A stretch of DNA of 58,201 nucleotides from an uncultured Candidatus Saccharibacteria bacterium. GTDB lineage: Bacteria; Patescibacteriota; Minisyncoccia; Phycocordibacterales; DATGWK01. The notes below the pieces were generated by a model, which had not been told where the DNA came from, ran no database searches, and worked only from the letters and a program-made list of their open reading frames with translations. Positions within the stretch are counted from its first letter, which is position 1. The number at the start of each line of letters is the position of its first letter. Location: contig CAZBJL010000005.1 in NCBI GenBank assembly GCA_964492195.1, positions 1-58,201 of the forward strand, given 5' to 3'. Below, piece after piece: positions 5,838 to 55,517 of the stretch. A program made the translations under genes and the position numbers.

Positions 5838-6086
5838 CTATTTTCGAACCATCTTCATGATCCAGATAAGGACCACCGCACCTAAAAGAGCGACAAGGAA
5901 ACTTGAGATGTTAAAACCTTGAACTCCACTGCCGCCAAAGAAACTCATGAGCCAGCCACCAATGACTGCGCCAACGATACCAACAATGACATTAACAATG
6001 ATTCCTTGTTGAGCATCAGTTCCCATGATGAGGGAAGCTACCCAGCCCACCAATCCTCCAAATATAATCCAAATGATGATACCCAT
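5838..6086 (-). CDS. GlsB/YeaQ/YmgE family (transglycosylase-associated) small membrane protein
   Basis: MGIIIWIIFGGLVGWVASLIMG... Gly-rich TM repeats typical of the family. Confidence 0.8.
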   Translation of the reverse strand: MGIIIWIIFGGLVGWVASLIMGTDAQQGIIVNVIVGIVGAVIGGWLMSFFGGSGVQGFNISSFLVALLGAVVLIWIMKMVRK

Positions 6087-6242
6087 ATATGTTTAACTAA
6101 TGATAACAATATAAGTATATACCTAAATAAAGCCCCATTTTGATCAGAACACACTCTGTTGACTTTCCCCTCCACAGGCGTACGCTGTGAGGTAGAAATG
6201 GGCTAACAATCGACACACCTGATATGTAAACAAAGGAGGGGT

Positions 6243-28162: not shown

Positions 28163-31100
28163 TTATTCTTCGCTTCCCTTACTTGATTTGGTGTCATCGG
28201 CATCTCTGTCTGCTTTTCGGAGTTCGACATCAAGACCCAAACCGCGGAGGTTGTTAAGAAGCACATTAAACGATGCGGGAATATTTAATTCTCGGATCGG
28301 CTCACCTTTCACGATTGCATCGAATGCAGCAGAACGACCGACGATATCGTCTGACTTAATGGTGAGCATTTCACGAAGTGTATGTGCGGCACCGTAGCCC
28401 AAAAGTGCCCAGACTTCCATTTCTCCAAATCGCTGACCTCCGTTTTGTGCCTTTCCACCGAGTGGCTGCTGGGTAATAAGAGAGTATGGACCGATTGAAC
28501 GCATGTGGATTTTATCTTCAACCATGTGATGAAGCTTCATGATGTACATGTAACCGACTGCAATTTTCTGACCAAAGGTTTCACCTGTTCGTCCGTCAAA
28601 AAGTGATACTTTGCCATCTTCGTTGAAGCCAGCTTTTTTGAGTTCGTCTTTGATTTCAACATCGCTTGCACCAGAGAACGGCGGCACAATTGCTTGGTAG
28701 CCAAGCGTATTTGCAGCAAGACCCAAATGCATTTCAAGAATCTGACCCAAGTTCATACGAGATGGAACACCAAGTGGCGTCAAAATAATGTCGATCGGCG
28801 TACCGTCTGCCATGTATGGCATATCTTCTTCTGGAAGAATCTTTGAAATAACACCTTTGTTACCGTGGCGACCTGCGAGTTTGTCTCCAACAGACACGTT
28901 TCGAAGCTGCGCAACTTCAATATGAATACTCTTGATGATTCCTGATTCGAGTTTGTCTCCACGCTCACGTGAGAACACTTGAACGTTAATGATTCGGCCA
29001 CGTTTTCCACCTTCCATTCTCTTTGATGTGTCTTTTACATCGCGAGCTTTTTCACCGAAGAGAGATCGGAGCAAACGTTCTTCTGGAGTAAGCTGACTTT
29101 CACCTTTTGGAGTAATTTTTCCAACGAGAATGTCGCCGGGACGAACTTCTGCACCAATGCGGATAATTCCGTCTTCAGCCAAATTTTTGAGTTTTGTTTC
29201 ACCGACGTTTGGAATGTCGCAGGTTGTAACTTCGGGACCGAGTTTTGTATCGCGAACGTTTACAACAAATTCTTCGATATGAATGCTTGTAAATTTGCTG
29301 TTTTTAACGAGTCGTTCAGAAAGAATAATGGCGTCTTCGTAGTTGGCACCAGACCATGACATGAATGCAACGAGGATGTTTTGCCCAAGAGCCATTTCAC
29401 CGCGATCGCTCGAAGATGTGTCGGCCATGATGTCACCTTTTTTAACCTTGTCACCAACGTTCACGCTTGGGCGCTGATGGAAACAGGTAAAACCGTTTGT
29501 TCGGGAGAAGTTTACAAGTTTGTATTCTTTTTCTTTTCCGCCTTTTGTATTTTTAACGATAATTTTCTTGGCGTCGGATGCGATGATTACACCGTCTTCT
29601 TCAGCTAAAAGGAGGCGACCTGTGTCACGAACTGCTTTACCTTCGATACCTGTCGCAACAAGAGGAGCTTCAGGAACGATACAAGGAGTTGCTTGCTTCT
29701 GCATGTTCGAACCCATGAGCGCTCGGCTCGCATCGTCGTGATTCAAAAATGGAATCATCGAAGTCGCAACAGAGAACGCTTGGTTTGTATCAACGTCGAT
29801 ATAGTCAACCTTGTCTTTTGAAACAACGATAGGATCGCCTGCAAGTCGAACTTCGACATCGTTATCAAGAATCATGTTGTTGTCGCCAACAGAAGTTGCG
29901 GCGTGTGCAATATAGAAAGATTCTTCTTCCATTGCATTAAGGTAGACGATTTCGTCGGTAACTTTACCGTTTTTAACCTTTGCGTACGGAGTTTCGATCA
30001 TGCCGAATTCATTGAGTCGAGCATAGAGACCGAGACGCAAAATAAGACCGATGTTTGGACCTTCGGGAGTGTGGATCGGACAGAGACGACCGTAATGTGA
30101 TGGATGAACGTCTCGAACTTCGAAACCAGCGCGAGCACGATTCAAACCGCCGGGACCGAGGGCTGAAAGTGTTCGTAAATGCTCGATTTCAGAAAGAGCA
30201 TTTTCCTGTTGCATGAACTGTGAGAGTTGATTGGTTGTGAAAAATTCTTTGATTCGAGCTTGGAGCGGTTTTGGACTAATAAACTGCACCGGAAGCGTAA
30301 TGTCGCTTTCAACCGTCGACATTCTGTTCTGAATGTTTCGTTTGATTTGAGCCATACCCATGCGAATTTTCTGCTGGAACATTTCTCCAACAAATCGCAC
30401 ACGGCGTGAACCGAGATGATCGATATCGTCTTCAACAGAGCCTGGAGTCGTATTCAAAACTCCAATGTGATTGATGATAGTTACAACGTCATCAAGAGAA
30501 AGAACCTTTCGTTCCAATTCCCCTTCTGACATTTTCTTTTCAAAACGCTTGTTGAACTGGACACGACCGACACGAGAAAAATCGTATCGTTCTTCACCAA
30601 AAATAGATTTGATAAATTCGCGGGCATTGTCTGCAGTTGCAAGGTCACCGTCGCGAAGTCGTTTGTGAATTTCAATAAAAGCTTCATCGAGAGACTTTGT
30701 GTGGTCTTTTACCAACGTTTTGTCGATGAAAGATTTGGCTGCAGAATCTTTAAACAAATCCTGAATGTTTTTGTCTGTAGCAGCACCGAGGACACGGAGG
30801 AGTGATGTAACGGGGAATTTTCGTTTTCGGTCGATTCGGGCAAACATACTGCCGTCAGAATCAGTTTCGATTTCAATCCACGCACCACGAGCTGGGATTA
30901 TCTTTGCACCAAACAAAATTTTGCCTTTGAGTTCATTGAGAGTAAAAAATACACCGAAAGATCGAGCAAGTTGCGGGACAACAACGCGCTCAACTCCGCT
31001 GATGATGAACGTACCGTGGTCAGTCATGACTGGCATGTCCGCCATGAAGATTTCCTGTTCTTTAGAAGTTCCGAGAGTGAGATTTTTGAGACGAATCTTT

Positions 31101-31378
31101 ACCTTAAGAGACGCTTCGTAAGACATTTTATTGTCTTTTGCGTAGTATTCGTCGAATTTTGGCTCTGCAAGTTCAAAACCAGTGAAATCGAGTTGAAACT
31201 TCTTTCCAGAATAGTCTTTAATAGAAGAAAATTCGCTGAAGACTTCTTTGAGGCCGTCTTTGAGAAGCCATTGGAAAGAATTCACCTGCGATTCGACGAA
31301 ATTTGGCATCTCGGTGAGAGGCTTTTTGAATTTCGCAAAATATTTTTTTACGATTGGCTGTGTCCCAGTTTTATCCAT
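28163..31378 (-). CDS. rpoB: DNA-directed RNA polymerase subunit beta
   Basis: Conserved blocks throughout, e.g. GRHGNKGVISKI and GGQRFGEMEVWAL. Confidence 0.98.
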   Translation of the reverse strand: MDKTGTQPIVKKYFAKFKKPLTEMPNFVESQVNSFQWLLKDGLKEVFSEFSSIKDYSGKKFQLDFTGFELAEPKFDEYYAKDNKMSYEASLKVKIRLKNLTLGTSKEQEIFMADMPVMTDHGTFIISGVERVVVPQLARSFGVFFTLNELKGKILFGAKIIPARGAWIEIETDSDGSMFARIDRKRKFPVTSLLRVLGAATDKNIQDLFKDSAAKSFIDKTLVKDHTKSLDEAFIEIHKRLRDGDLATADNAREFIKSIFGEERYDFSRVGRVQFNKRFEKKMSEGELERKVLSLDDVVTIINHIGVLNTTPGSVEDDIDHLGSRRVRFVGEMFQQKIRMGMAQIKRNIQNRMSTVESDITLPVQFISPKPLQARIKEFFTTNQLSQFMQQENALSEIEHLRTLSALGPGGLNRARAGFEVRDVHPSHYGRLCPIHTPEGPNIGLILRLGLYARLNEFGMIETPYAKVKNGKVTDEIVYLNAMEEESFYIAHAATSVGDNNMILDNDVEVRLAGDPIVVSKDKVDYIDVDTNQAFSVATSMIPFLNHDDASRALMGSNMQKQATPCIVPEAPLVATGIEGKAVRDTGRLLLAEEDGVIIASDAKKIIVKNTKGGKEKEYKLVNFSRTNGFTCFHQRPSVNVGDKVKKGDIMADTSSSDRGEMALGQNILVAFMSWSGANYEDAIILSERLVKNSKFTSIHIEEFVVNVRDTKLGPEVTTCDIPNVGETKLKNLAEDGIIRIGAEVRPGDILVGKITPKGESQLTPEERLLRSLFGEKARDVKDTSKRMEGGKRGRIINVQVFSRERGDKLESGIIKSIHIEVAQLRNVSVGDKLAGRHGNKGVISKILPEEDMPYMADGTPIDIILTPLGVPSRMNLGQILEMHLGLAANTLGYQAIVPPFSGASDVEIKDELKKAGFNEDGKVSLFDGRTGETFGQKIAVGYMYIMKLHHMVEDKIHMRSIGPYSLITQQPLGGKAQNGGQRFGEMEVWALLGYGAAHTLREMLTIKSDDIVGRSAAFDAIVKGEPIRELNIPASFNVLLNNLRGLGLDVELRKADRDADDTKSSKGSEE

Positions 31379-31612
31379 AATGTTTTATTAAAATTTTCTA
31401 AATAATCCTTTCAAACATTCTTCTCACACAGCAGTCTCCTGCATTCATTTACAAAAAAATAGAAAAGACGGAAAAATTCCCCCTGTGGATAAGGGTTCTT
31501 GATCTTCTTTTTAATTTATCTATTTAAATGAGGCACGTTGCCGCTTGTATCTAAAACAGCCTTGTAAACCTTCATTTTCTGCCACGACTCAATCGGAATG
31601 AATTGGACCCCG

Positions 31613-31641
31613 ATTATATACTGGGGTGCGTATTTGGTCAA
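31613..31641 (-). promoter_or_regulatory. rpoBC promoter, giving a ~228-nt leader
   Basis: Minus strand reads TTGACC-17-TATAAT. Confidence 0.6.
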
Positions 31642-31644
31642 GTA

Positions 31645-31734
31645 AATAAAAACCCCGAACACAGCCTTTGTGTAGGGGGTCCATGGACGAGAGCGCCGAA
31701 GCGCAAGATCGAATGAATACAGAGTAAACGTTCT
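31645..31734 (-). ncRNA. Candidate small RNA 2 (self-contained promoter-to-terminator unit)
   Basis: Starts ~7 nt after the TATGAT -10 box. Internal hairpins ACAGAG/CTCTGT and GCGC-UUCG-GCGC. Ends with CCCC..ACACA/UGUGU..GGGG followed by UUUUUAUUU. Confidence 0.45.
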
Positions 31735-31740
31735 CTGTTA

Positions 31741-31768
31741 ATCATACTGCGCCCACACTTATAGTCAA
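31741..31768 (-). promoter_or_regulatory. Promoter of candidate sRNA 2
   Basis: Minus strand reads TTGACT-16-TATGAT. Confidence 0.55.
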
Positions 31769-31771
31769 GCA

Positions 31772-31894
31772 AAGAAAAAGGGCCGCCACCCGAAGGTAGG
31801 CGGCCCAGTTGGAATGGAGGAGTCTGGGACTCCAAACCAACGTCTCAGGGTCCAAAGACCAAAAAGCTTCACCTGAAGCCAACACATGACATCT
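31772..31894 (-). ncRNA. Candidate small RNA 1 (self-contained promoter-to-terminator unit)
   Basis: Starts ~7 nt after the TAATCT -10 box. Hairpin GUUGG..GGAGUC-cca-GACUCC..CCAAC. Terminator GGGCCGCC-uaccuucgggu-GGCGGCCC followed by UUUUUCUUU. Confidence 0.45.
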
Positions 31895-31900
31895 TTCACT

Positions 31901-31928
31901 AGATTACACCGACACAAGACTCTGTCAA
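31901..31928 (-). promoter_or_regulatory. Promoter of candidate sRNA 1
   Basis: Minus strand reads TTGACA-16-TAATCT, directly after the trmD stop. Confidence 0.55.
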
Positions 31929-31932
31929 CAGG

Positions 31933-32574
31933 CTACTTCTTTGCTCGCCACTCCTCTATTTTTTTATGATCACCGGAAAGAAGGACCTTGGGCACTTTGT
32001 ATTTTTTACCTTTATATTCTAAAACTTCTGGTCGAGTGTATACGTCAGAACTCGCCGCTCGACTTTCTTCCAAAGAATCAAAATTTCCGAGCACGCCTTT
32101 CACCTGTCGAGCAACACAATCCATAATAAGCATTGCGGGCAATTCCCCACCTGTGAGCACAAACGGTCCAATCGAAACATCTTCCATTTTAAAAACTTTT
32201 TTTACCCGAGCATCAATACCTTCGTAACGGCCAGAGACAATAATGATGTCAGTGTATTTTTTGGCAGCAGTTTTGGCGTATTCGTTCGTAAATTGCACAC
32301 CTCCAGGAGAAAGGAAAATGATTTTTGGTTTACGTTTCTTGCCTGAAGCCTTCATTGCAGCTTCGATAGCCCTGATCGTTGGGAGTGCCCGCACTACCAT
32401 CCCTGGCCCACCGCCGTATGGTTTATCATCAGCTCGCTTACCTTCTGTTTCAAAGTCTTTAGGATCATAAAATGTGATCTTAATCTTTTTGTCTTCAATG
32501 GCGCGCTTAATGATCGACTCGGAAAGATACGAGTCGAAAGCGCCTGGAAAAAGGGTTATGACGTGAAAATTCAT
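31933..32574 (-). CDS. trmD: tRNA (guanine37-N1)-methyltransferase
   Basis: MNFHVITLFPGAF..., GGGPGMV and GRYEGIDARV motifs. The start was chosen at the conserved N-terminus; the ORF extends to 32616. Confidence 0.93.
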   Translation of the reverse strand: MNFHVITLFPGAFDSYLSESIIKRAIEDKKIKITFYDPKDFETEGKRADDKPYGGGPGMVVRALPTIRAIEAAMKASGKKRKPKIIFLSPGGVQFTNEYAKTAAKKYTDIIIVSGRYEGIDARVKKVFKMEDVSIGPFVLTGGELPAMLIMDCVARQVKGVLGNFDSLEESRAASSDVYTRPEVLEYKGKKYKVPKVLLSGDHKKIEEWRAKK

Positions 32575-32643
32575 CGCCGCACAATACCACAAAATCCAAT
32601 TTACGTAAAACCGCACTCATACGAGTGCGGTTTACTGACAAGA

Positions 32644-32952
32644 CTAGAGTTTCAAATCCGCCATTGCTTCGTCGACGGTTTTGCTTGCCTTTACTACCTT
32701 TTCGCCACCAACTGGCTCATTTATTTTAAGATTTACGCGAGCGTTGTGCTTCATGCCAACAACTCGAAGAAGGGTTCGAATGGCTTTTGCTGTGTTTCCT
32801 TCCCGACCGATCACCTTACCCATATCTGCGGAGTTAACGTCGAGGGTCAAAAGTACGCCCATTTCATCAACAACTCGTGTAATTTTTACATCGTTTGGAT
32901 TATCAACCAACGCTCGGACAACAAATTCTAAAAACTGACTGTCATGTTCCAT
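32644..32952 (-). CDS. KH-domain RNA-binding protein (YlqC/UPF0109 family)
   Basis: GKVIGREGNTAKAIRTLL GXXG KH motif, in the conserved position between rpsP and trmD. Confidence 0.85.
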   Translation of the reverse strand: MEHDSQFLEFVVRALVDNPNDVKITRVVDEMGVLLTLDVNSADMGKVIGREGNTAKAIRTLLRVVGMKHNARVNLKINEPVGGEKVVKASKTVDEAMADLKL

Positions 32953-33046
32953 GTTTTAAAGTTTAGCTGTTTATAAAGTACTTGCCTGTATTCAGAATAG
33001 GGGAAAAAACAACTAGTAGCAACGGAGAAGTCAACAGTTCTTTAAC

Positions 33047-33188
33047 TAATCTTCCAACGAGAGCGCCGTAAATTCTGCTGAATTTCGGCTACTCTCGCCC
33101 ACGGAATGACTTTCGAGAATTCATGACGAAAGTCATTCCTGCCTGCGGAAACTCTCGTTGGAAGATTAGTTTGGAAAAAATACAATAC
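33047..33188 (-). ncRNA. Candidate structured RNA element, copy A (strand assignment tentative)
   Basis: Perfect 17-bp outer helix (33047-33063 pairs with 33152-33168) enclosing a conserved hairpin and a 12-bp hairpin (33104-33115 pairs with 33127-33138). A 21-nt box shared with copy B lies at 33169-33188. Confidence 0.45.
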
Positions 33189-33207
33189 GCACACTAAAAA
33201 AGAGGGA

Positions 33208-33588
33208 TTATGCTTGTACTGGCTCTGGAGCAACTTCTGCAGGAGCAGTCGGAGCTTCTGGAGCAGGTGCTGCGACTTCTGCCGGTGCACCACCTTCAAC
33301 TTCTTTCTTGATTGGACGTTTCTTTGGGAGAACGTTTACTTTTTTACCAGGAATAAGTTTGCGGCTCACAAGGAGGTTGTGGATTGTGCCAGAAAGTTTG
33401 GCACCGTGAGACATCCAGTGTTTTACTCGGTCGAATTTAATTTCGGCCTTTTCAGCTCGGCGAGAATCAAAAGAACCCAACACTTCAAGAGACTTACCGC
33501 TCTTTGGACCGTTCTTTGAATCCGTTAAAACCACGCGGAAAGTCGGCTCGTTCTTTCGGCCAACCCTTTGTAATCGAATCATAAGCAT
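33208..33588 (-). CDS. rpsP: 30S ribosomal protein S16 with an Ala/Pro/Glu-rich C-terminal tail
   Basis: MLMIRLQRVGRKNEPTFRVVLTDS... is a canonical S16 N-terminus. The ORF extends to 33624. Confidence 0.93.
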   Translation of the reverse strand: MLMIRLQRVGRKNEPTFRVVLTDSKNGPKSGKSLEVLGSFDSRRAEKAEIKFDRVKHWMSHGAKLSGTIHNLLVSRKLIPGKKVNVLPKKRPIKKEVEGGAPAEVAAPAPEAPTAPAEVAPEPVQA

Positions 33589-33698
33589 GGGGGCCATTGT
33601 AGCAGGGGTTTTTAAAAGGGTCAATGTCTTTTAAGCCCTATCCTCCGAAGACAAAAGAAAACCGCGCAAAGCGCGGTTGGAGCACTGCCCGACAATCC

Positions 33699-34304
33699 CT
33701 AAGTAGGAAAAGTGGACCTGGTTGCTACAAGATAAGACCCTTCGGGCAAAAGTACACAGAACCGATGAGTCAACTCATAGAGCTGATAGAATTCTTCCCT
33801 ACACAGAGCCAACATCTCCTCCGAATGTCTTTTGCCGACTGACTGAAGTCCCACCCATGAATCTTCCACGACAGTCCTGTGATGAACGATAGAGGCACCC
33901 AACTCCCTCAACCGCACCGCAGCACGTGATTCAAGGACCCCTGGATTCAATGGGTCATCGTTCTTGAAACAGAGCATACTCCTCAACGTCTGAATGTCAT
34001 TAAAGAAATACTGGCAGAGTGTGGGCTTGGGCCAATAGTCGATAATCACACAGACCACGAGGAAAGGAACAAAGTAGAAAAAGATGGTAGATCCAGATGC
34101 TTTTACACGTTCGGGGTATAAAAGCATCACTACAAGACCCAAAAGAATGAGGGTACTCATATTTATCGCGATTAACCACTTCTTCCATTGATGTAGTCGG
34201 TCGGATCTCTCGACCTCTGCCCGCGAGACATGTGTACTTTCTGCCCAGCGAGTAAGAAGGTCTTCATGAATCAAACCCGTACGAATTGCCTTACGCAGAG
34301 TCAT
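33699..34304 (-). CDS. Hypothetical membrane protein (orphan with an SD)
   Basis: AAGGAG lies upstream of the ATG. Two central TM segments. It looks more G+C-rich than its neighbours. No known domain. Confidence 0.55.
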   Translation of the reverse strand: MTLRKAIRTGLIHEDLLTRWAESTHVSRAEVERSDRLHQWKKWLIAINMSTLILLGLVVMLLYPERVKASGSTIFFYFVPFLVVCVIIDYWPKPTLCQYFFNDIQTLRSMLCFKNDDPLNPGVLESRAAVRLRELGASIVHHRTVVEDSWVGLQSVGKRHSEEMLALCREEFYQLYELTHRFCVLLPEGSYLVATRSTFPT

Positions 34305-40654: not shown

Positions 40655-41347
40655 CTACGCCCAATCCTTCACTTCAAGCGCCTTCTTTGCGGCTTCCTGC
40701 TCTGCGTCTTGTTTCGACTTTCCTTCTCCTGTTGCGATCATCTTGTTGCCGATAAAAACGCCGACTGTGAACTGTTTGTCATGGTCTGGGCCGGTTTCTT
40801 TTACAGTTTTATATTGCGGAGTAAGCTCAACGATCTCCTGTGCCTTTTCCTGAAAGAGACTCTTTGAGTCAATCCATGAGCCTTCCGAAAGAACAGTGTC
40901 GATAAGTGGAGAAATATGAGTATAAATAAAATCCTTTGCGGCATCGTACCCTTGGTCGACATAGACTGCGCCGATCACTGCCTCAAGTGTATTTGCCAAA
41001 ATGTACTGGCGTGCACGGCCAGTGTCTTTTGCTTCACCTTTTGAAAGGATGAGGTAGTCGTTCATGCCGAGCTTCGTGGCCACTGCAGCGCACGTAGTGG
41101 CATTCACAAGCGCTGAACGATACGCGGTCATGTCACCCTCATTTTTATCTGGATATTTTTTGAAAAGATAATCCGTGATGACGAGTTCGAGCACTGCATC
41201 GCCTAAAAATTCGAGACGCTCGTTGTGCCCAAAGCCAGCGTCTTTATTTTCATTTATATAGGAACGATGAACAAACGCTTGCCGGAGCAAGTTTTTGTCG
41301 TTAAATTTTACGCCCGCTGTTTTTTCAAATTCACTGAAATCTGGCAT
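40655..41347 (-). CDS. rnc: Ribonuclease III
   Basis: Signature NERLEFLGDAVL and a C-terminal dsRBD. Confidence 0.95.
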   Translation of the reverse strand: MPDFSEFEKTAGVKFNDKNLLRQAFVHRSYINENKDAGFGHNERLEFLGDAVLELVITDYLFKKYPDKNEGDMTAYRSALVNATTCAAVATKLGMNDYLILSKGEAKDTGRARQYILANTLEAVIGAVYVDQGYDAAKDFIYTHISPLIDTVLSEGSWIDSKSLFQEKAQEIVELTPQYKTVKETGPDHDKQFTVGVFIGNKMIATGEGKSKQDAEQEAAKKALEVKDWA

Positions 41348-41398: not shown

Positions 41399-42298
41399 CT
41401 ACTTCTTAAGCAAGATATTGATTGCCTTTGTCACGATCGGCAAAATGTCATTATAAAAATTGAGGTCAAGAATGTCGGCAAGTTTGAACCATTTTGTATC
41501 ATCGAGGCCGCCATTACCTTCTTCGAGTTTGAGATCTTTAAACGGAGCCTTGGCCATATAATAGACGACCCGCTTTCGCTTCTTTCCCGTTTCAGGGTGA
41601 TAGGCAATGTACTCATTTTCACCGAGCTTGTCTTCAATCGTGACGTCCAAACCAATTTCATCATGAGCTCCGCGAGTAATCCCCGCTTTTTCTTCTTCGC
41701 CTGGCTTTAATTTGCCCTTGGTAAGCGTCCAATGGCCAAAAACGTCATGCACAAGCGCGAGGTAGATATCGCCTTCATGGTGAGCGTATACGACCGCCCC
41801 GCCGAGGATTTCCAGGGGTGCTTCTGCATCTGGGATGTCCTTTGGGCGTTTATGCTTCGAGGTTTCGTTCTTGTCTGGCTCGCCCATTTCTTTGTACACC
41901 GCACCGAGAACGCCGTTGACGAATTTACTACTTGTGTCACCGCCGTATGTCTTTGCGAGTTCGATTGCTTCGTTAATAGCAACCTTCGGTGGCACTTCTT
42001 TATGGTCAGCAAAAATGAGTTCGTAGAGACCAACTCTTAAAATATTGCGGTCAACGATAGAAATTTTTTCGATTGGCCAATCCGGAGCAGCTTTGGTAAT
42101 AATTTTATCTAAATCAGTGCTTTTTTTGAGCACATTTTTCATGAGATTGTCCGTAAATAAAAAATCTCCCATACCGGGAGCAAACTCTTCTGTATTGCGA
42201 CGAAGAATATCGAGCGCTTCTTTTTCGCTTTTCTTATTGAAATCAGTCTCGAAGAGGGACTGAACAACTATTGATCTGGAAAGGTGCCGATTTGCCAT
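41399..42298 (-). CDS. nusB: NusB antitermination factor fused to a C-terminal Nudix-fold domain
   Basis: N-terminal ~140 aa is NusB-like (RSIVVQSLFETDF...AINEAIELAKTYG). The C-terminus has a Nudix-box-like GKLKPGEEEKAGITRGAHDEIGL. Confidence 0.8.
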   Translation of the reverse strand: MANRHLSRSIVVQSLFETDFNKKSEKEALDILRRNTEEFAPGMGDFLFTDNLMKNVLKKSTDLDKIITKAAPDWPIEKISIVDRNILRVGLYELIFADHKEVPPKVAINEAIELAKTYGGDTSSKFVNGVLGAVYKEMGEPDKNETSKHKRPKDIPDAEAPLEILGGAVVYAHHEGDIYLALVHDVFGHWTLTKGKLKPGEEEKAGITRGAHDEIGLDVTIEDKLGENEYIAYHPETGKKRKRVVYYMAKAPFKDLKLEEGNGGLDDTKWFKLADILDLNFYNDILPIVTKAINILLKK

Positions 42299-42348: not shown

Positions 42349-42573
42349 CTACTTTGCTTCTGTAGCTTTTTGAGACTTTTTTGTCTCCTTTTTTAACGCT
42401 GATTCCATGTCCATAACCTTGCGACCTTTGTATTGGCCACAACTTGCACAGACAGCGTGTTTTTCTTTGGGGGCATTGCAGTTTGCACAGACAGCAAAAC
42501 CTCGCGCCTTGAGCGCGTGATGAGACCGGCGGTTACCGGTGTGGCTTCTTGTGCTTCGCATTCGTACTACCAT
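42349..42573 (-). CDS. rpmF: 50S ribosomal protein L32
   Basis: MVVRMRSTRSHTGNRRSHHALK... and a CxxC...CxxC zinc ribbon. Confidence 0.92.
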   Translation of the reverse strand: MVVRMRSTRSHTGNRRSHHALKARGFAVCANCNAPKEKHAVCASCGQYKGRKVMDMESALKKETKKSQKATEAK

Positions 42574-42583
42574 ACAGGGAAGG

Positions 42584-42612
42584 ATTATAGCGGAAATGGC
42601 TTATTTAGGCAA
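42584..42612 (-). promoter_or_regulatory. rpmF promoter, -10 box 10 nt from the ATG
   Basis: Minus strand reads TTGCCT-17-TATAAT, then ccttccctgt, then ATG. Confidence 0.6.
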
Positions 42613-42671
42613 GAAATCTACAGCCCCACCCTCCGAAGACCGTTCGCGCACTCCTGCGGAGGGCTTTTCAA

Positions 42672-42780
42672 CCCACCCCTCCAGGAGAGCGCATAAATTC
42701 TACTGAATTTTGCTCCTCTCGGTCGCCTTCGCGACCTGCGAACTCTCCTTCCGGGCTGGGTTTGGTAAAAAATACAATAC
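42672..42780 (-). ncRNA. Candidate structured RNA element, copy B (strand assignment tentative)
   Basis: Outer helix 42672-42689 pairs with 42743-42760. Conserved hairpin at 42685-42720. GGTCGC/GCGACC hairpin at 42721-42736. Shared 21-nt box at 42761-42780. Confidence 0.45.
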
Positions 42781-42866
42781 TCATACTGTCATCCCCGACT
42801 CGCCTCGCGGCGTAAATTTAACGGGGATCCAGTATTTTTTTCAAAGAAAAACTTCTGAATATGATT

Positions 42867-43490
42867 CTATGAAATCCCCTTCAAAAAACTCCTTCGATGA
42901 ATCTCACTCGGCCCGAATTTCTTAATTTTTTGCCGATGAGAAAGCGTTCCATAGCCTTTATGAATATGAAAATCAAAGTCAGGGTACCGTTTTGATAACC
43001 GAATCATTGTGTGGTCACGGGTAACTTTGGCGACGATGGATGCAAGGCTGATGAGTGGTTCGCTTTGATCTCCACGGATGATCGTTTTTTGGTATAAAAA
43101 TTCTTCTGGAGCAGAGAGACTGCCATCGAGAATAACCATTGTCTGATGAGCTGGCACTTGGAGTTTTTTAAGAATTTTTTTCGTCGCAAGGCGAATCGCA
43201 AAGACAATTCCCTTTTCGTCGATAATTTTTGGACTGATTAAAGCTACCGCGAAGTCGAGTGATTTTTCTTTTTTTGCGTGCTTCATTTTTTTGAAAATTT
43301 CTTCACGAACTTTCGGCGAAAGCATTTTTGAATCTTTTGCGATTTTAAAAAGAGGATGTTTTGTGTTGAAAGGTATGACGACAGCACCCACAGAAACCGG
43401 TCCAGCCAAAGGCCCACGCCCTGCCTCATCTATTCCAACAATAAAATTAATACGACTCGGATATATTTTGACGATTTTCGGCGCGGTCAT
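42867..43490 (-). CDS. rnhB: Ribonuclease HII
   Basis: GIDEAGRGPLAGPV catalytic motif. The start was chosen at MTAPKIV; the ORF extends to 43532. Confidence 0.9.
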   Translation of the reverse strand: MTAPKIVKIYPSRINFIVGIDEAGRGPLAGPVSVGAVVIPFNTKHPLFKIAKDSKMLSPKVREEIFKKMKHAKKEKSLDFAVALISPKIIDEKGIVFAIRLATKKILKKLQVPAHQTMVILDGSLSAPEEFLYQKTIIRGDQSEPLISLASIVAKVTRDHTMIRLSKRYPDFDFHIHKGYGTLSHRQKIKKFGPSEIHRRSFLKGIS

Positions 43491-43518
43491 GGAAGTAGGT
43501 AAGGTAATCTCTAAGTTG

Positions 43519-43524
43519 TATAAT
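43519..43524 (+). promoter_or_regulatory. -10 box 6 nt upstream of the dnaE ATG (leaderless configuration)
   Basis: TTG-TATAAT, then cgtagc, then ATG. No SD. Confidence 0.5.
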
Positions 43525-43530
43525 CGTAGC

Positions 43531-46500
43531 ATGTCGAAATTTACACACCTCCACGTCCATAGTCATTACAGCCTCCTCAACGCTTTGCCCAAAATCCCCG
43601 ACCTTGTTGAAACAGCGAAAGAAAATGGAATGGAGGCACTCGCCCTCACCGACAACGGCAACCTCTATGGCGCAATCGAGTTCTATAAAGAATGCAAAAA
43701 AGGTGGCATCAAACCCATTTTAGGTATCGATGCGTACGTTGCTCCTCGAACTCGAGCAGACAAAGAACGCGGTATCGACAACCCTCGCCAGCGTTTGTTG
43801 CTTTTGGCAAAAGATGTTTCGGGCTACAAAAATCTCATCAAGATTGTGACTACTGCAAACCTCGAGGGCTTTTATTACAAACCTCGCGTCGACAAAGAAC
43901 TTGTCCAAACTCACAAAGAAGGTCTCATCGCTATTTCACCTGCAATGTATGGCGAAGTTGCAAGTGCGATTGCAAACAAAGATTTTGAAAAAGCCAAAAC
44001 GATCATTACCTTTTACAAAGAAACATTCGGTCCTGATCATTTTTATATTGAAATAACCTATCATCCAGAAATCGACGGTCATGAAGAAAAAATGGCAGGC
44101 GTGATTAAGATCGCAAAAGAAATGGATGTGCCGATCGTCGCGGCGCACGAAGTTTTTTATCTTTCGGTTAAAGATCGCCTTGCTCGCAACACCCTTGTTT
44201 CGATTCAAAATATTGATTACAGCGACAGGAACAACGGTGGCGGAGGTATCGGCGACTCCGAAGAAGATTTTTCTATGATCACACCAGCGCAAGCCGAAAA
44301 GTTTTTCAAAAAAATTCCGGAAGCACTTGAAAATAATGAAAAAATCGTCGGTATGTGCAACCTGGAACTCCAGCTCGGCAAATGGCTCTTTCCAAACATT
44401 GTCGTTAAAAGCGGGCTTTCGTATGACGACGAACTCCGACACATGGTCTATGAAGGCCTCAAACGCCGCGGAGTAATCGAGACTCCAGAGGCAAAAACAA
44501 GAATTGACTTCGAGCTTGGTGTCATTAAAGACAAAGGCTATGCGCCATACTTCCTCGTTGTGGCCGACCTTCTTGCCTTTGCCCACAAAAACCACATCCT
44601 CACGACAATTCGAGGTTCGGTTGCCGGATCTTTTGTTACATACCTTTCCGGAATTACAAACGTCGATCCGATAAAATTTAAATTGCCATTCGAACGATTC
44701 TTAAATCCCGAACGTCCATCTGCTCCCGATATCGACATGGACTATGCCGATAACCGTCGCGATGAAATGATTGCGTATGCAAAAGAAAAATACGGCGCAG
44801 ACAAAGTCGCCCAGATCGGAACGTTCGGTACGATGATGGCCCGTGGCTCTGTACGCGACGTTACCCGTGCACTCGGTCATCCATACATTTTGGGCGACAA
44901 AATTTCAAAACTCATTCCGATGGGTGCGCAAGGATTCCCGATGACTATCGACCGTGCAATGGAAGAAGTCGCCGAACTCCGCCAACTCTATAAAGCTGAC
45001 GCAACGGTAAAAGAAATCATCGACATGGCAAAAAAGATTGAAGGTTGTGCACGCCACATTTCAGTTCATGCCGCTGGTGTTGTTATTTCCCCTGTTCCTC
45101 TTACAGAAATCGTACCGCTTCAGTACGACACCCGCGAAGGCAAAGACATCATCACCCAGTACGATATGTATTCGATCGATGAAGAAAATGCCGGCCTCCT
45201 CAAATTCGACTTTCTTGGAATTAAAAACTTGGCGATTCTTGCCGACGCCGTTGCACTGACTAAAAAACTCAAGAACATCGACATTGATATTGAAAACGTT
45301 CAGATTGATGACAAAAAAACGTATGAAATGCTTGCTCGAGGTGAAACGCTTGGCCTTTTCCAGCTGAACGGCGAAGCAATGACGAAGTTCCTCAAAGAAC
45401 TCCGCCCGACAAACATCAACGACATCAACGTCATGATCGCCCTCTACCGTCCGGGTCCAATGCGAAACATTCCCGATTACATCAACCGCAAGCATGGAAA
45501 AGCTCCTGTCACGTATCTTCATCCAAAAATGGAAAGTTACCTCAAAGACTCGTACGGGATTTTGGTGTACCAGGAAGACATCATGTTCACGGCGCTCGAA
45601 CTCGCTGGCTACACCTGGAAAACAGTCGACAAACTCCGCAAAGCCATCGGTAAAAAAATTCCAAAAGAAATGGAAGAGCAGCATGCAGTGTTTGTCGACG
45701 GCTGTTTGAAATCTTCGAATATTCCGAAAGAAAAAGCCGAGCAAATCTGGGATTTGTTCGATCCGTTCAAAGGCTACGGCTTCAACAAAGCCCACGCCGC
45801 AAGCTACGGCAAGGTTGCATACCAAACGTCATACATGAAGGCGAATTTCCCTGCGATCTATATGTCAGCCGTCCTTACTGCGGATTCTGGCGACGTCGAG
45901 CAAATCGCCGAAATTATTTCTGAATGTAAACGCATGAAGATTCCCGTACTCGCCCCAGACATCAATGAAAGCTTTGGTGGATTTACCGTCGTGCAAGACG
46001 ACGCATCACAAATAGAGAAAATTCGCTTCGGGCTCTACACCATCAAAAACCTTGGCGAAGGCATTGCTGACACGATTATTACGGAAAGAAAGAAGAATGG
46101 AAAATTCAAATCTCTTTCAGATTTTTTGGATCGAGTGAAAGATAAAAATTTAAATAAAAAGTCTCTCGAAGCCCTTATTAAAACTGGAGCAATGGATGAA
46201 CTTGGCGAACGCGGCCAGCTTCTTGCGAATCTCGAAAATATTCTTGCATACAGCAAAGAAAAAACTGCGGGTAACGATGGACAATCCCTTTTTGGTTTGA
46301 TGGCGGACACCTCAAGTATCCCTGGCCTCCGGCTCGCTCCCGCTGAACCCGCAAGCAACCAAGACAAGCTGACCTGGGAACGCGATCTCCTCGGACTCTA
46401 CATTTCTGGCCACCCACTCGATCGCTTCAAAGAAAAAATCGCAAAGCTTGGCGGAGCAATTAACCAGACAAAAGAACACGCAATCGAAGGCAGCACGATC

Positions 46501-55104: not shown

Positions 55105-55145
55105 GTGTTACTCGCTTGTCGAGTGAAAATACAATACCATCAAAC

Positions 55146-55517
55146 CTACGCCGTGTCGCCGTCGCGACGGAATGACATCGAACGCATGTACGGTGAAACG
55201 GTATTGTTTGAAAAGTCTCGCTTGCCTCTCATTTTTGGATTCGTCCCATGATAATACCCATGGGTTTTTGCTTTAATCCGTCCAAAGAGTGCTTCCACTC
55301 GATTTGGGATATGAACCAAAAAAAGAAAGAACGCTCTTTCTCGGCGATGATCCCAAATTTCCTGCAATCGTTTACCAACAGCAATGATTACAGGATCACC
55401 TTTAGAAAAAAATCGGCCAAAAAAAGTTTGTCGACCCTTTTTCATTTCTACACGCTTTACAACCAAGAGGAATAAAATTCCCAGAAGAGCAACGATACAT
55501 GTATAGAGCAGTGACAT
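55146..55517 (-). CDS. Membrane-anchored hypothetical protein
   Basis: N-terminal TM segment and a basic C-terminal region. No known domain. Confidence 0.5.
   Translation of the reverse strand: MSLLYTCIVALLGILFLLVVKRVEMKKGRQTFFGRFFSKGDPVIIAVGKRLQEIWDHRRERAFFLFLVHIPNRVEALFGRIKAKTHGYYHGTNPKMRGKRDFSNNTVSPYMRSMSFRRDGDTA

Follow-up and report, generated by a model that had tools for sequence, protein, structure and literature searches.

Two diverged copies of a putative small modular insertion element in a Paceibacteria lineage

The Correia elements of Neisseria and the ERIC/IRU and BOX-type elements are non-coding intergenic sequences of ~100–160 nt, whose presence or absence varies among close relatives, whose ends pair as a long duplex when transcribed, and which may carry promoter-like sequences. 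The terminal duplex of the Correia element is a substrate of RNase III, and roles in mRNA processing and stability have been reported for Correia and ERIC/REP elements. To our knowledge, no mobile non-coding elements have been described in Patescibacteria (CPR), the genomes of which are small and tightly packed. Here, we report two structured intergenic sequences, copies A and B, in a stretch of DNA of 58,201 nt (hereafter the window) whose KH-protein homologues belong to Paceibacteria/Parcubacteria. Both resemble the above elements in size, in their non-coding intergenic nature, in their variable presence among close relatives, in the pairing of their ends, and in their promoter-like sequences, and TA lies beside the 15-bp inverted repeat of copy A and beside that of a metagenomic relative, L159, as it does in the Correia, ERIC and BOX elements. 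On the other hand, these known elements occur in tens to hundreds of copies and have conserved terminal repeats, whereas here there are two copies (plus one relative), the outer arms co-vary, an asymmetric box lies outside the inverted repeat, and the target is apparently an 8-bp word rather than TA. We propose, with moderate confidence, that A and B represent diverged copies of one small (~150–165 nt) modular non-coding insertion element that recently entered one lineage of Paceibacteria (Patescibacteria); the evidence comprises the two copies in 58 kb and one distant relative elsewhere.

Copy A is situated between rpsP (33624..33208) and a KH-protein gene (32952..32644), followed by trmD (32616..31933) and rpoB (31378..28163), all on the minus strand. 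The gene coordinates confirm the length of 255 nt given for the rpsP-KH spacer in the first-pass annotation of the sequence. Read on the minus strand, copy A starts with the box AGTGTGCGTATTGTATTTTTTCCAAAC (33169..33195), which contains the −10-hexamer-like TATTGT/TATTTT, and continues with the 5′ arm of the outer helix P1 (AACTAATCTTCCAACGAGAG, 33152..33171), GAGAGTT, hairpin H2 (33103..33139), a second GAGAG, hairpin H1 (33065..33089), GCGCTCTC, the 3′ arm of P1 (CTCTCGTTGGAAGATTAGTT, 33044..33063), and GTTAAAG. Folding and an inverted-repeat search identify P1 as a 20-bp helix with 20/20 Watson-Crick pairs and no bulge, the longest inverted repeat in the window. H2 is a perfect hairpin of 13 bp with an 11-nt loop and differs between the copies. 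H1, the conserved hairpin, consists of a 6-bp AAATTC/GAATTT stem with a 4-nt loop, a bulged base, and a lower stem that co-varies between the copies. The predicted folding energy of copy A is −71.2 kcal/mol (z = −9.0), and none of 200 shuffled sequences folds equally well. The three-helix architecture proposed in the first-pass annotation thus holds for the folds of both copies, as does H1 of copy A, and two stems need only be lengthened: the outer helix is indeed perfect, with 20 bp (33044–33063 paired with 33152–33171) in place of 17, and H2 is perfect with 13 bp in place of 12.

Copy B (42664..42787, minus strand; delimited by folding and by alignment to A) is located between the genes for RNase HII (43532..42867) and rpmF (42573..42349), and starts 77–79 nt past the RNase HII stop codon. 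It has the same upstream box and the same order of parts, as had been noted: the box (42787..42760), the P1 arms (42762..42743 and 42689..42670), H2 (42736..42721), H1 (42713..42691), and the tail GTTGAAAAG. It folds at −49.3 kcal/mol (z = −4.7), and its P1 is imperfect, with 16/20 Watson-Crick pairs and symmetric internal loops only. No clear direct repeat was observed at the flanks of copy B, the right side being ambiguous. An extra segment directly 3′ of it (42621..42663, minus strand; long-context fold) contains a second 3′-arm-like sequence, CTTCGGAGGGTGGGGCTG (42638..42621), and in the fold of the whole spacer the 5′ arm of copy B pairs with this second segment just before the rpmF promoter. 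Possibly, a second insertion at that site left this segment behind. The gene following rpmF (41399–42298, minus strand) encodes a 299-aa protein; its homologue in L019, a contig of the closest relative, matches NusB and, weakly, NUDIX, which would be an unusual fusion.

Conservation between the two copies is strongly mosaic. The shared box, AGTrTGmGTATTGTATTTTTT(A)CCAAAC on the minus strand, is identical in 25 of 28 columns (~0.01 chance matches expected); it is common to both copies, as reported, although longer than the 21 nt ascribed to it. The conserved segments taken together (the box, GAGAGTT, CGCAGG, the second GAGAG, and H1 with GCGCTCTC) coincide at 70 of 81 positions, compared to 8/24 in the variable 12-nt parts of both arms (Fisher p = 1e-6). 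Within the window, the full box and exact matches to the H1 core, TAAATTCTNCTGAATTT, are confined to A and B. H1 and H2 are unrelated to each other in sequence and length. The diverged helices have nevertheless kept their pairing, with five compensatory pairs in P1 and two in the lower stem of H1. Both the compensating change in H1 and the contrast between divergent sequence and preserved self-complementarity had been pointed out before; the former is borne out, and the latter stands for P1 and H2, with the reservation that the outer helix of B is not perfect.

Nearly all pairs in the helices of both copies are Watson-Crick, and the co-variation is equally compatible with a DNA hairpin and an RNA. 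The first-pass annotation stated that there are no G-U pairs to tell the strands apart, but A and B both have one such pair (GAGAGU/GCUCUC), restricted to the minus strand, and the fold of this strand is 4–8 kcal/mol more stable than that of the plus strand; hence some strand information exists, though it is weak. A conformational switch had also been suggested, as GAGAG may pair with alternative CUCUC tracts. These alternatives exist in both copies but are not iso-energetic, since pairing of the proximal GAGAG with the single CUCUC is less favorable by 6.8 kcal/mol in A and by 7.0 kcal/mol in B.

Comparison with related genomes shows that the element is a recent addition at both loci. Site A is empty in the rpsP-KH loci of seven relatives with KH proteins 89–96% identical to that of the window, and their spacers are 78–128 nt long. 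The closest relative (KH protein 96% and EF-Ts 93% identical) lacks the element at both sites: its RNase HII-rpmF spacer is 133 nt long, and sensitive BLAST and motif scans of ~32 kb of its sequence (L019 and L173 are one contig of this genome) revealed no copy. Site B is empty in L019–21. The element is therefore not a conserved part of an rpsP-KH-trmD operon. In another relative, L022, site B contains a different insert, a 115-aa ORF with its own terminator (929–1276), and the RNase HII-rpmF spacer seems to be an insertion hot spot (copy B and the L022 ORF). The junction of the 3′ half of copy A with the KH gene is identical in the Logan assembly of run SRR12487045 and thus is not an assembly artifact. 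Two contigs of the same species from this assembly, L017 and L018, end inside H1 of A and 24 nt before the box of B; repeats or hairpins that break the assembly graph could be the cause, or simply low coverage.

The empty sites delimit the insertion at site A. The sequence there is stop-TTCGCACCTGGGGA-TTAGTTAAGG... in L002, the closest relative, compared to stop-TCCCTCTTTT-TTAGT-GTGCG...(element)...GGAAGA-TTAGT-TAAAG in the window. Hence, 148 nt were inserted, bounded by the 5-bp direct repeat TTAGT (33197..33193 and 33049..33045, read from the sequence; unit with repeats 33045..33197, minus strand, as compared to the empty sites of L001, L002, L005, L161, L162, and L163). It also follows that the outermost 6 bp of P1 (AACTAA/TTAGTT) are formed with DNA already present in the relatives, the last 6 nt of the 3′ arm, TTAGTT, being target or flank DNA; L001, too, has TAGTTA here. 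In L002 (2380–2405), rpsP stops at a TAG, and a second in-frame TAG 18 nt further on is that of the word TTAGTTAA, which suggests that the C-terminus of this protein was recently shortened; the rpsP tail is Ala/Pro-rich and variable among the relatives.

The same word TTAGTTAA is retained at the right junction of copy A (33042..33049, minus strand), and it occurs exactly twice in ~32 kb of the closest relative, namely, at its empty site A and at its empty site B, 78 nt past the RNase HII stop. Once site A has set the motif, the probability that it turns up in the B spacer by chance is 0.007, an estimate based on two sites; the unconditioned test for any common word of at least 8 nt in the two spacers is not significant (p = 0.30). 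The target-site statistics are hence suggestive rather than conclusive. The only other occurrence of TTAGTTAA in the window (6093..6100, minus strand) is unoccupied, 7 nt ahead of the point where the gene 6086..5838 starts.

Each copy lies in sense orientation, past the stop codon of the gene before it and ahead of the conserved promoter of the gene after it. The spacer sequence that follows copy A aligns in all seven relatives and contains the native KH promoter TTGCTA-N17-TATTCT (32994..33022, minus strand), conserved among them, so that this promoter is downstream of the element. Similarly, the alignment places the native rpmF promoter TTGCCT-N17-TATAAT (42584..42612, minus strand), conserved in L019, downstream of copy B. 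Therefore neither copy is an ordinary leader of the following gene, a possibility that the first-pass annotation had allowed for, and a role as a riboswitch or leader is unlikely.

The box itself is a possible promoter, judging from its sequence. Its 12-mer GTATTGTATTTT is found again, with 12/12 nt in common, 21 nt upstream of tRNA-Thr, where GCGACA-N17-TGgTATTGT, which is also kept in the closest relative, seems to be a true extended −10 promoter. The boxes of A and B have the same hexamer without a −35 element, and their TG is shifted by one base. Between the −10 hexamer and the tRNA-Thr (UGU) gene there are ~27 nt in the window (55121–55165, minus strand) and ~90 nt in L174 (10950–11075). 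We considered the tRNA-Thr box as a third remnant of the element and rejected this, since the box is conserved in the closest relative and hence ancestral there. Other candidate signals also failed: a plus-strand promoter (TTGGAA-17-TACAAT) is present in A only; no U-tract that would make an intrinsic terminator follows the helices of A or B; the short ORFs of A and B, judged by their sequence, lack the conservation and hydrophobicity that a conserved small peptide or a type I toxin would show; and the box, by our reading, resembles a dif/Xer site only partially, with no XerD arm.

A search for the frame pattern TGTATTTT..CCAAAC-N12-GAGAGTT yielded one real relative, L159 (Ga0247841_10044897), a phage-like metagenome contig in which the sequence follows an AAA_24 ATPase gene and is near an HTH_17 protein. 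It matches the left end of A at 33 of 36 nt, with 17/20 nt of the 5′ arm in common, and has an inverted repeat of its own with 15/17 matches, as compared to at most 10/17 in chance hits; relative to A, the arms carry three compensatory changes. The interior of L159 has the length of that of A (86 nt), while its sequence is unrelated and not significantly structured, and the T-run of its "box" is the tail of an intrinsic terminator. Since A and L159 share the shell, and A and B share the box and the core, the family is modular.

Wider searches produced no further members. The first-pass annotation had recognized no named RNA family, and in agreement with this Rfam gave no match at A or B at either gathering or permissive E-value thresholds, with best scores of 13–17 bits (E = 1.5–5.4) to miRNA and snoRNA models; in the window only tRNA-Thr passes. 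ARAGORN predicted no tRNA-like gene at either copy. The strict H1 pattern had no matches in 185,579 GTDB representative genomes or in JGI metagenomes, and the pattern of the box plus CCAAAC, scanned in GTDB only, had 11 matches, all in unrelated taxa and none followed by GAGAG; the pattern scans needed exact matches and would thus overlook members that have diverged. In IMG/VR, further patterns and a protein-based locus search returned chance matches only, and BLAST against phages and plasmids gave nothing significant.

We compared the element with several known families, and the defining features of none of them were found in full. The terminal conservation of classical MITEs (IS630/Tc1-type, Correia), which conserve their termini, is absent: the arms co-vary, and the outer 12 nt are identical between A and B at 4/12 positions. 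TTAGT...TTAGT flanks A, no duplication is clear at B, and TA flanks the inverted repeat of L159. The copy number is two in 58 kb, and presence/absence polymorphism is evident from the comparison with relatives. The view that the element is an RNA rather than a MITE, preferred in the first-pass annotation, is not established, given the 5-bp direct repeat of copy A, the recurring target word, and the almost purely Watson-Crick helices.

With REP/REPIN sequences and the IS200/IS605-derived PATEs, the element would have in common hairpin-dependent mobility and insertion beside a short specific word; like them, it is positioned just past stop codons, and the pairing of AACTAA with TTAGTT in copy A recalls that between guide and cleavage site in IS608. 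The presence of TTAGTTAA at both empty sites (p = 0.007) together with this pairing could reflect a guide of the PATE/REPIN type, the comparison being limited to two sites. However, REP/REPIN sequences and PATEs have similar hairpins at both ends, and here H1 and H2 are unlike; IS200/IS605 elements produce no direct repeat, and copy A has one; nor was a Y1/HUH transposase gene seen. Retron msr-msd ncRNAs are similar in that they combine a sequence-variable outer helix (a1/a2-like in our element) with two hairpins, of which one is conserved and the other perfect and variable. They differ in that here no reverse transcriptase gene is adjacent (the neighbors being rpsP, KH, trmD, RNase HII, and rpmF), H2 is too short for a typical msd, and two copies are present at housekeeping loci.

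Under the preferred reading of A and B as an insertion element, it would have moved as DNA by means of an enzyme supplied in trans and integrated at TTAG|TTAA, and the insertion may be site-specific and hairpin-dependent. No transposase or recombinase was linked to the element, and no gene for a mobilizing enzyme was found within the window. As the arms co-vary rather than stay conserved, the recognized substrate is probably a folded hairpin (ssDNA or RNA) and not a fixed terminal sequence; by analogy, it would be comparable to integron attC sites, REP/REPIN, and IS200-type elements. After insertion, transcription could enter the element from the preceding gene by read-through or start from the −10-like TATTGT of its own box, and the transcript is predicted to form a very stable three-way junction. 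The 20-bp perfect duplex might then be a natural substrate of RNase III (rnc is encoded in the window at 41347..40655) or a barrier to 3′ exonucleases, and the inserted element might act in mRNA processing or stability, as reported for Correia and ERIC/REP elements.

The main rival explanation, which we consider unlikely, is a mobile small-RNA gene. In such a gene the box would be a −35-less promoter (TATTGT/TATTTT) with a start near CCAAAC, the 5′ and 3′ ends would be paired in P1, H1 and the junction would bind a protein or a target, and P1 and H2 would be free to vary as long as they remain paired. The mosaic conservation with compensatory changes agrees with this, and the conservation of the asymmetric box, of H1, and of the junction residues is reminiscent of functional constraint, which would fit an RNA gene as well. 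Moreover, the element is co-oriented with the flanking genes in all three cases, the one conserved G·U pair and the better fold are on the minus strand, and the 12-nt match of the box is to a seemingly genuine extended −10 promoter, that of tRNA-Thr. However, neither copy has a −35 element, the TG is one base too far from the hexamer, and no terminator follows either copy. In L159, the T-run belongs to an intrinsic terminator, and the interior shows no significant structure and no relation to that of A; finally, the element is absent from all relatives examined and from the GTDB and JGI scans. Regulation of the downstream genes, i.e., a cis-regulatory leader or conformational switch for KH-trmD and rpmF, as favored in the first-pass annotation, seems extremely improbable: although both copies are upstream of same-strand genes and both contain the duplicated GAGAG/CUCUC alternatives, relatives have the same operons without the element, the native promoters are downstream of it, the alternative fold is ~7 kcal/mol less stable, and the two downstream genes are unrelated to each other.

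The second rival is an integron attC-like recombination site on a tiny ORF-less cassette, i.e., a hairpin with an AAC...G|TT base inserted at a GTTRRRY-like secondary site. As in attC sites, conservation concerns the structure and not the sequence, and the terminal structure varies. At its base the helix has ..CCAAAC[stem]G|TTAAAG in A and G|TTGAAA in B, which is near to RYYYAAC and GTTRRRY and provides the AAC...GTT typical of attC stems. The lengths of 108–134 nt are within the attC range (57–141 nt), the inferred crossover inside TTAG|TT is similar to attC insertion adjoining the G|TT core, and tandem remnants are possibly present in B. Still, we hold this reading to be very unlikely, as the helix of A is perfect, with neither extrahelical bases nor an unpaired central spacer, and the core sites (TCCAAAC and GTTAAAG in A, ACCAAAC and GTTGAAA in B) each deviate from the R″ and R′ consensus at one or two positions, while L159 has no GTT. 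Further, an internal H1 and a box outside the hairpin are conserved here, and the gene map of the window, which consists of housekeeping genes, contains neither an intI gene nor a cassette array. We give equally little credence to inert remnants of horizontally acquired, phage-derived DNA with neither mobility nor function of their own, the palindromes of which are kept perfect by intrastrand template switching. The phage-like context of L159 and other lineage-specific insertions in the same 3-kb region (the ORF201 cassette and a 290-nt insert, see below) would suit such an origin; the strongly mosaic conservation of the two copies (p = 1e-6), the same target word at both sites, and the co-varying arms speak against it.

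A bolder version of the insertion-element reading, quite unlikely in our estimate, is that of a new class of miniature mobile elements of CPR bacteria and phages. Such elements would be recognized by their fold, their site TTAG|TTAA would be chosen by pairing of the internal AACTAA with the target, and host DNA would complete the terminal helix. The shell (box and arms) and the core (H1 with the junction, or other cargo) would reassort as modules, and the element would possibly also be a self-promoted small RNA gene. If insertion is truly site-specific and hairpin-dependent, the element would be a marker of recent gene exchange between CPR cells and their phages, and it might be an example of a very small element that selects its target through base pairing. 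It would also caution against taking every well-folded, co-varying intergenic sequence of a MAG for a regulatory RNA. If, on the other hand, it is no more than a rare inert insertion, it matters only locally, in that it explains a long spacer and two breakpoints of a short-read assembly.

Several other features of this region deserve mention. A lineage-specific insertion of ~290 nt (31645–31932, minus strand) directly follows trmD; it is absent in L002 and L161, folds with z = −4.3, and has no Rfam match. It contains two promoter-like sequences, TTGACA..TAATCT and TTGACT-17-TATGAT, with a strong intrinsic terminator after each (GGGCCGCC..GGCGGCCC-TTTTT and a CCCC..GGGG hairpin with TTTTT), and judging by these signals may comprise two small RNA genes. 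Next to it, rpoB has a long 5′ leader (31379–31645, minus strand) downstream of the promoter TTGACC-17-TATAAT, with blocks conserved in six relatives (TCCGATTGAGT, AAGGATTACAAGG, and CCTTATCCACAGGGG with a T-run after it, which resembles an attenuator); co-variation in this leader is weak according to RNAalifold (four pairs).

Between the divergent genes for RNase R and rpsP, a cassette (33699–34304, minus strand, with flanks to 34440) encodes a predicted membrane protein of 201 aa (ORF201) and is absent from all relatives examined, in which the spacer is ~100 nt. With this cassette, three lineage-specific insertions are clustered within 3 kb. ORF201 was considered as a partner gene of the element and rejected, as it has no Pfam domain and has its own promoter and terminator. 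Finally, the mechanically called rpsP ORF has a TTG start codon overlapping the promoter of the gene itself (TTGACC-17-TACAAT, with TG; 33585–33624, minus strand), and the true start is probably the ATG of MLMIRLQRVG.
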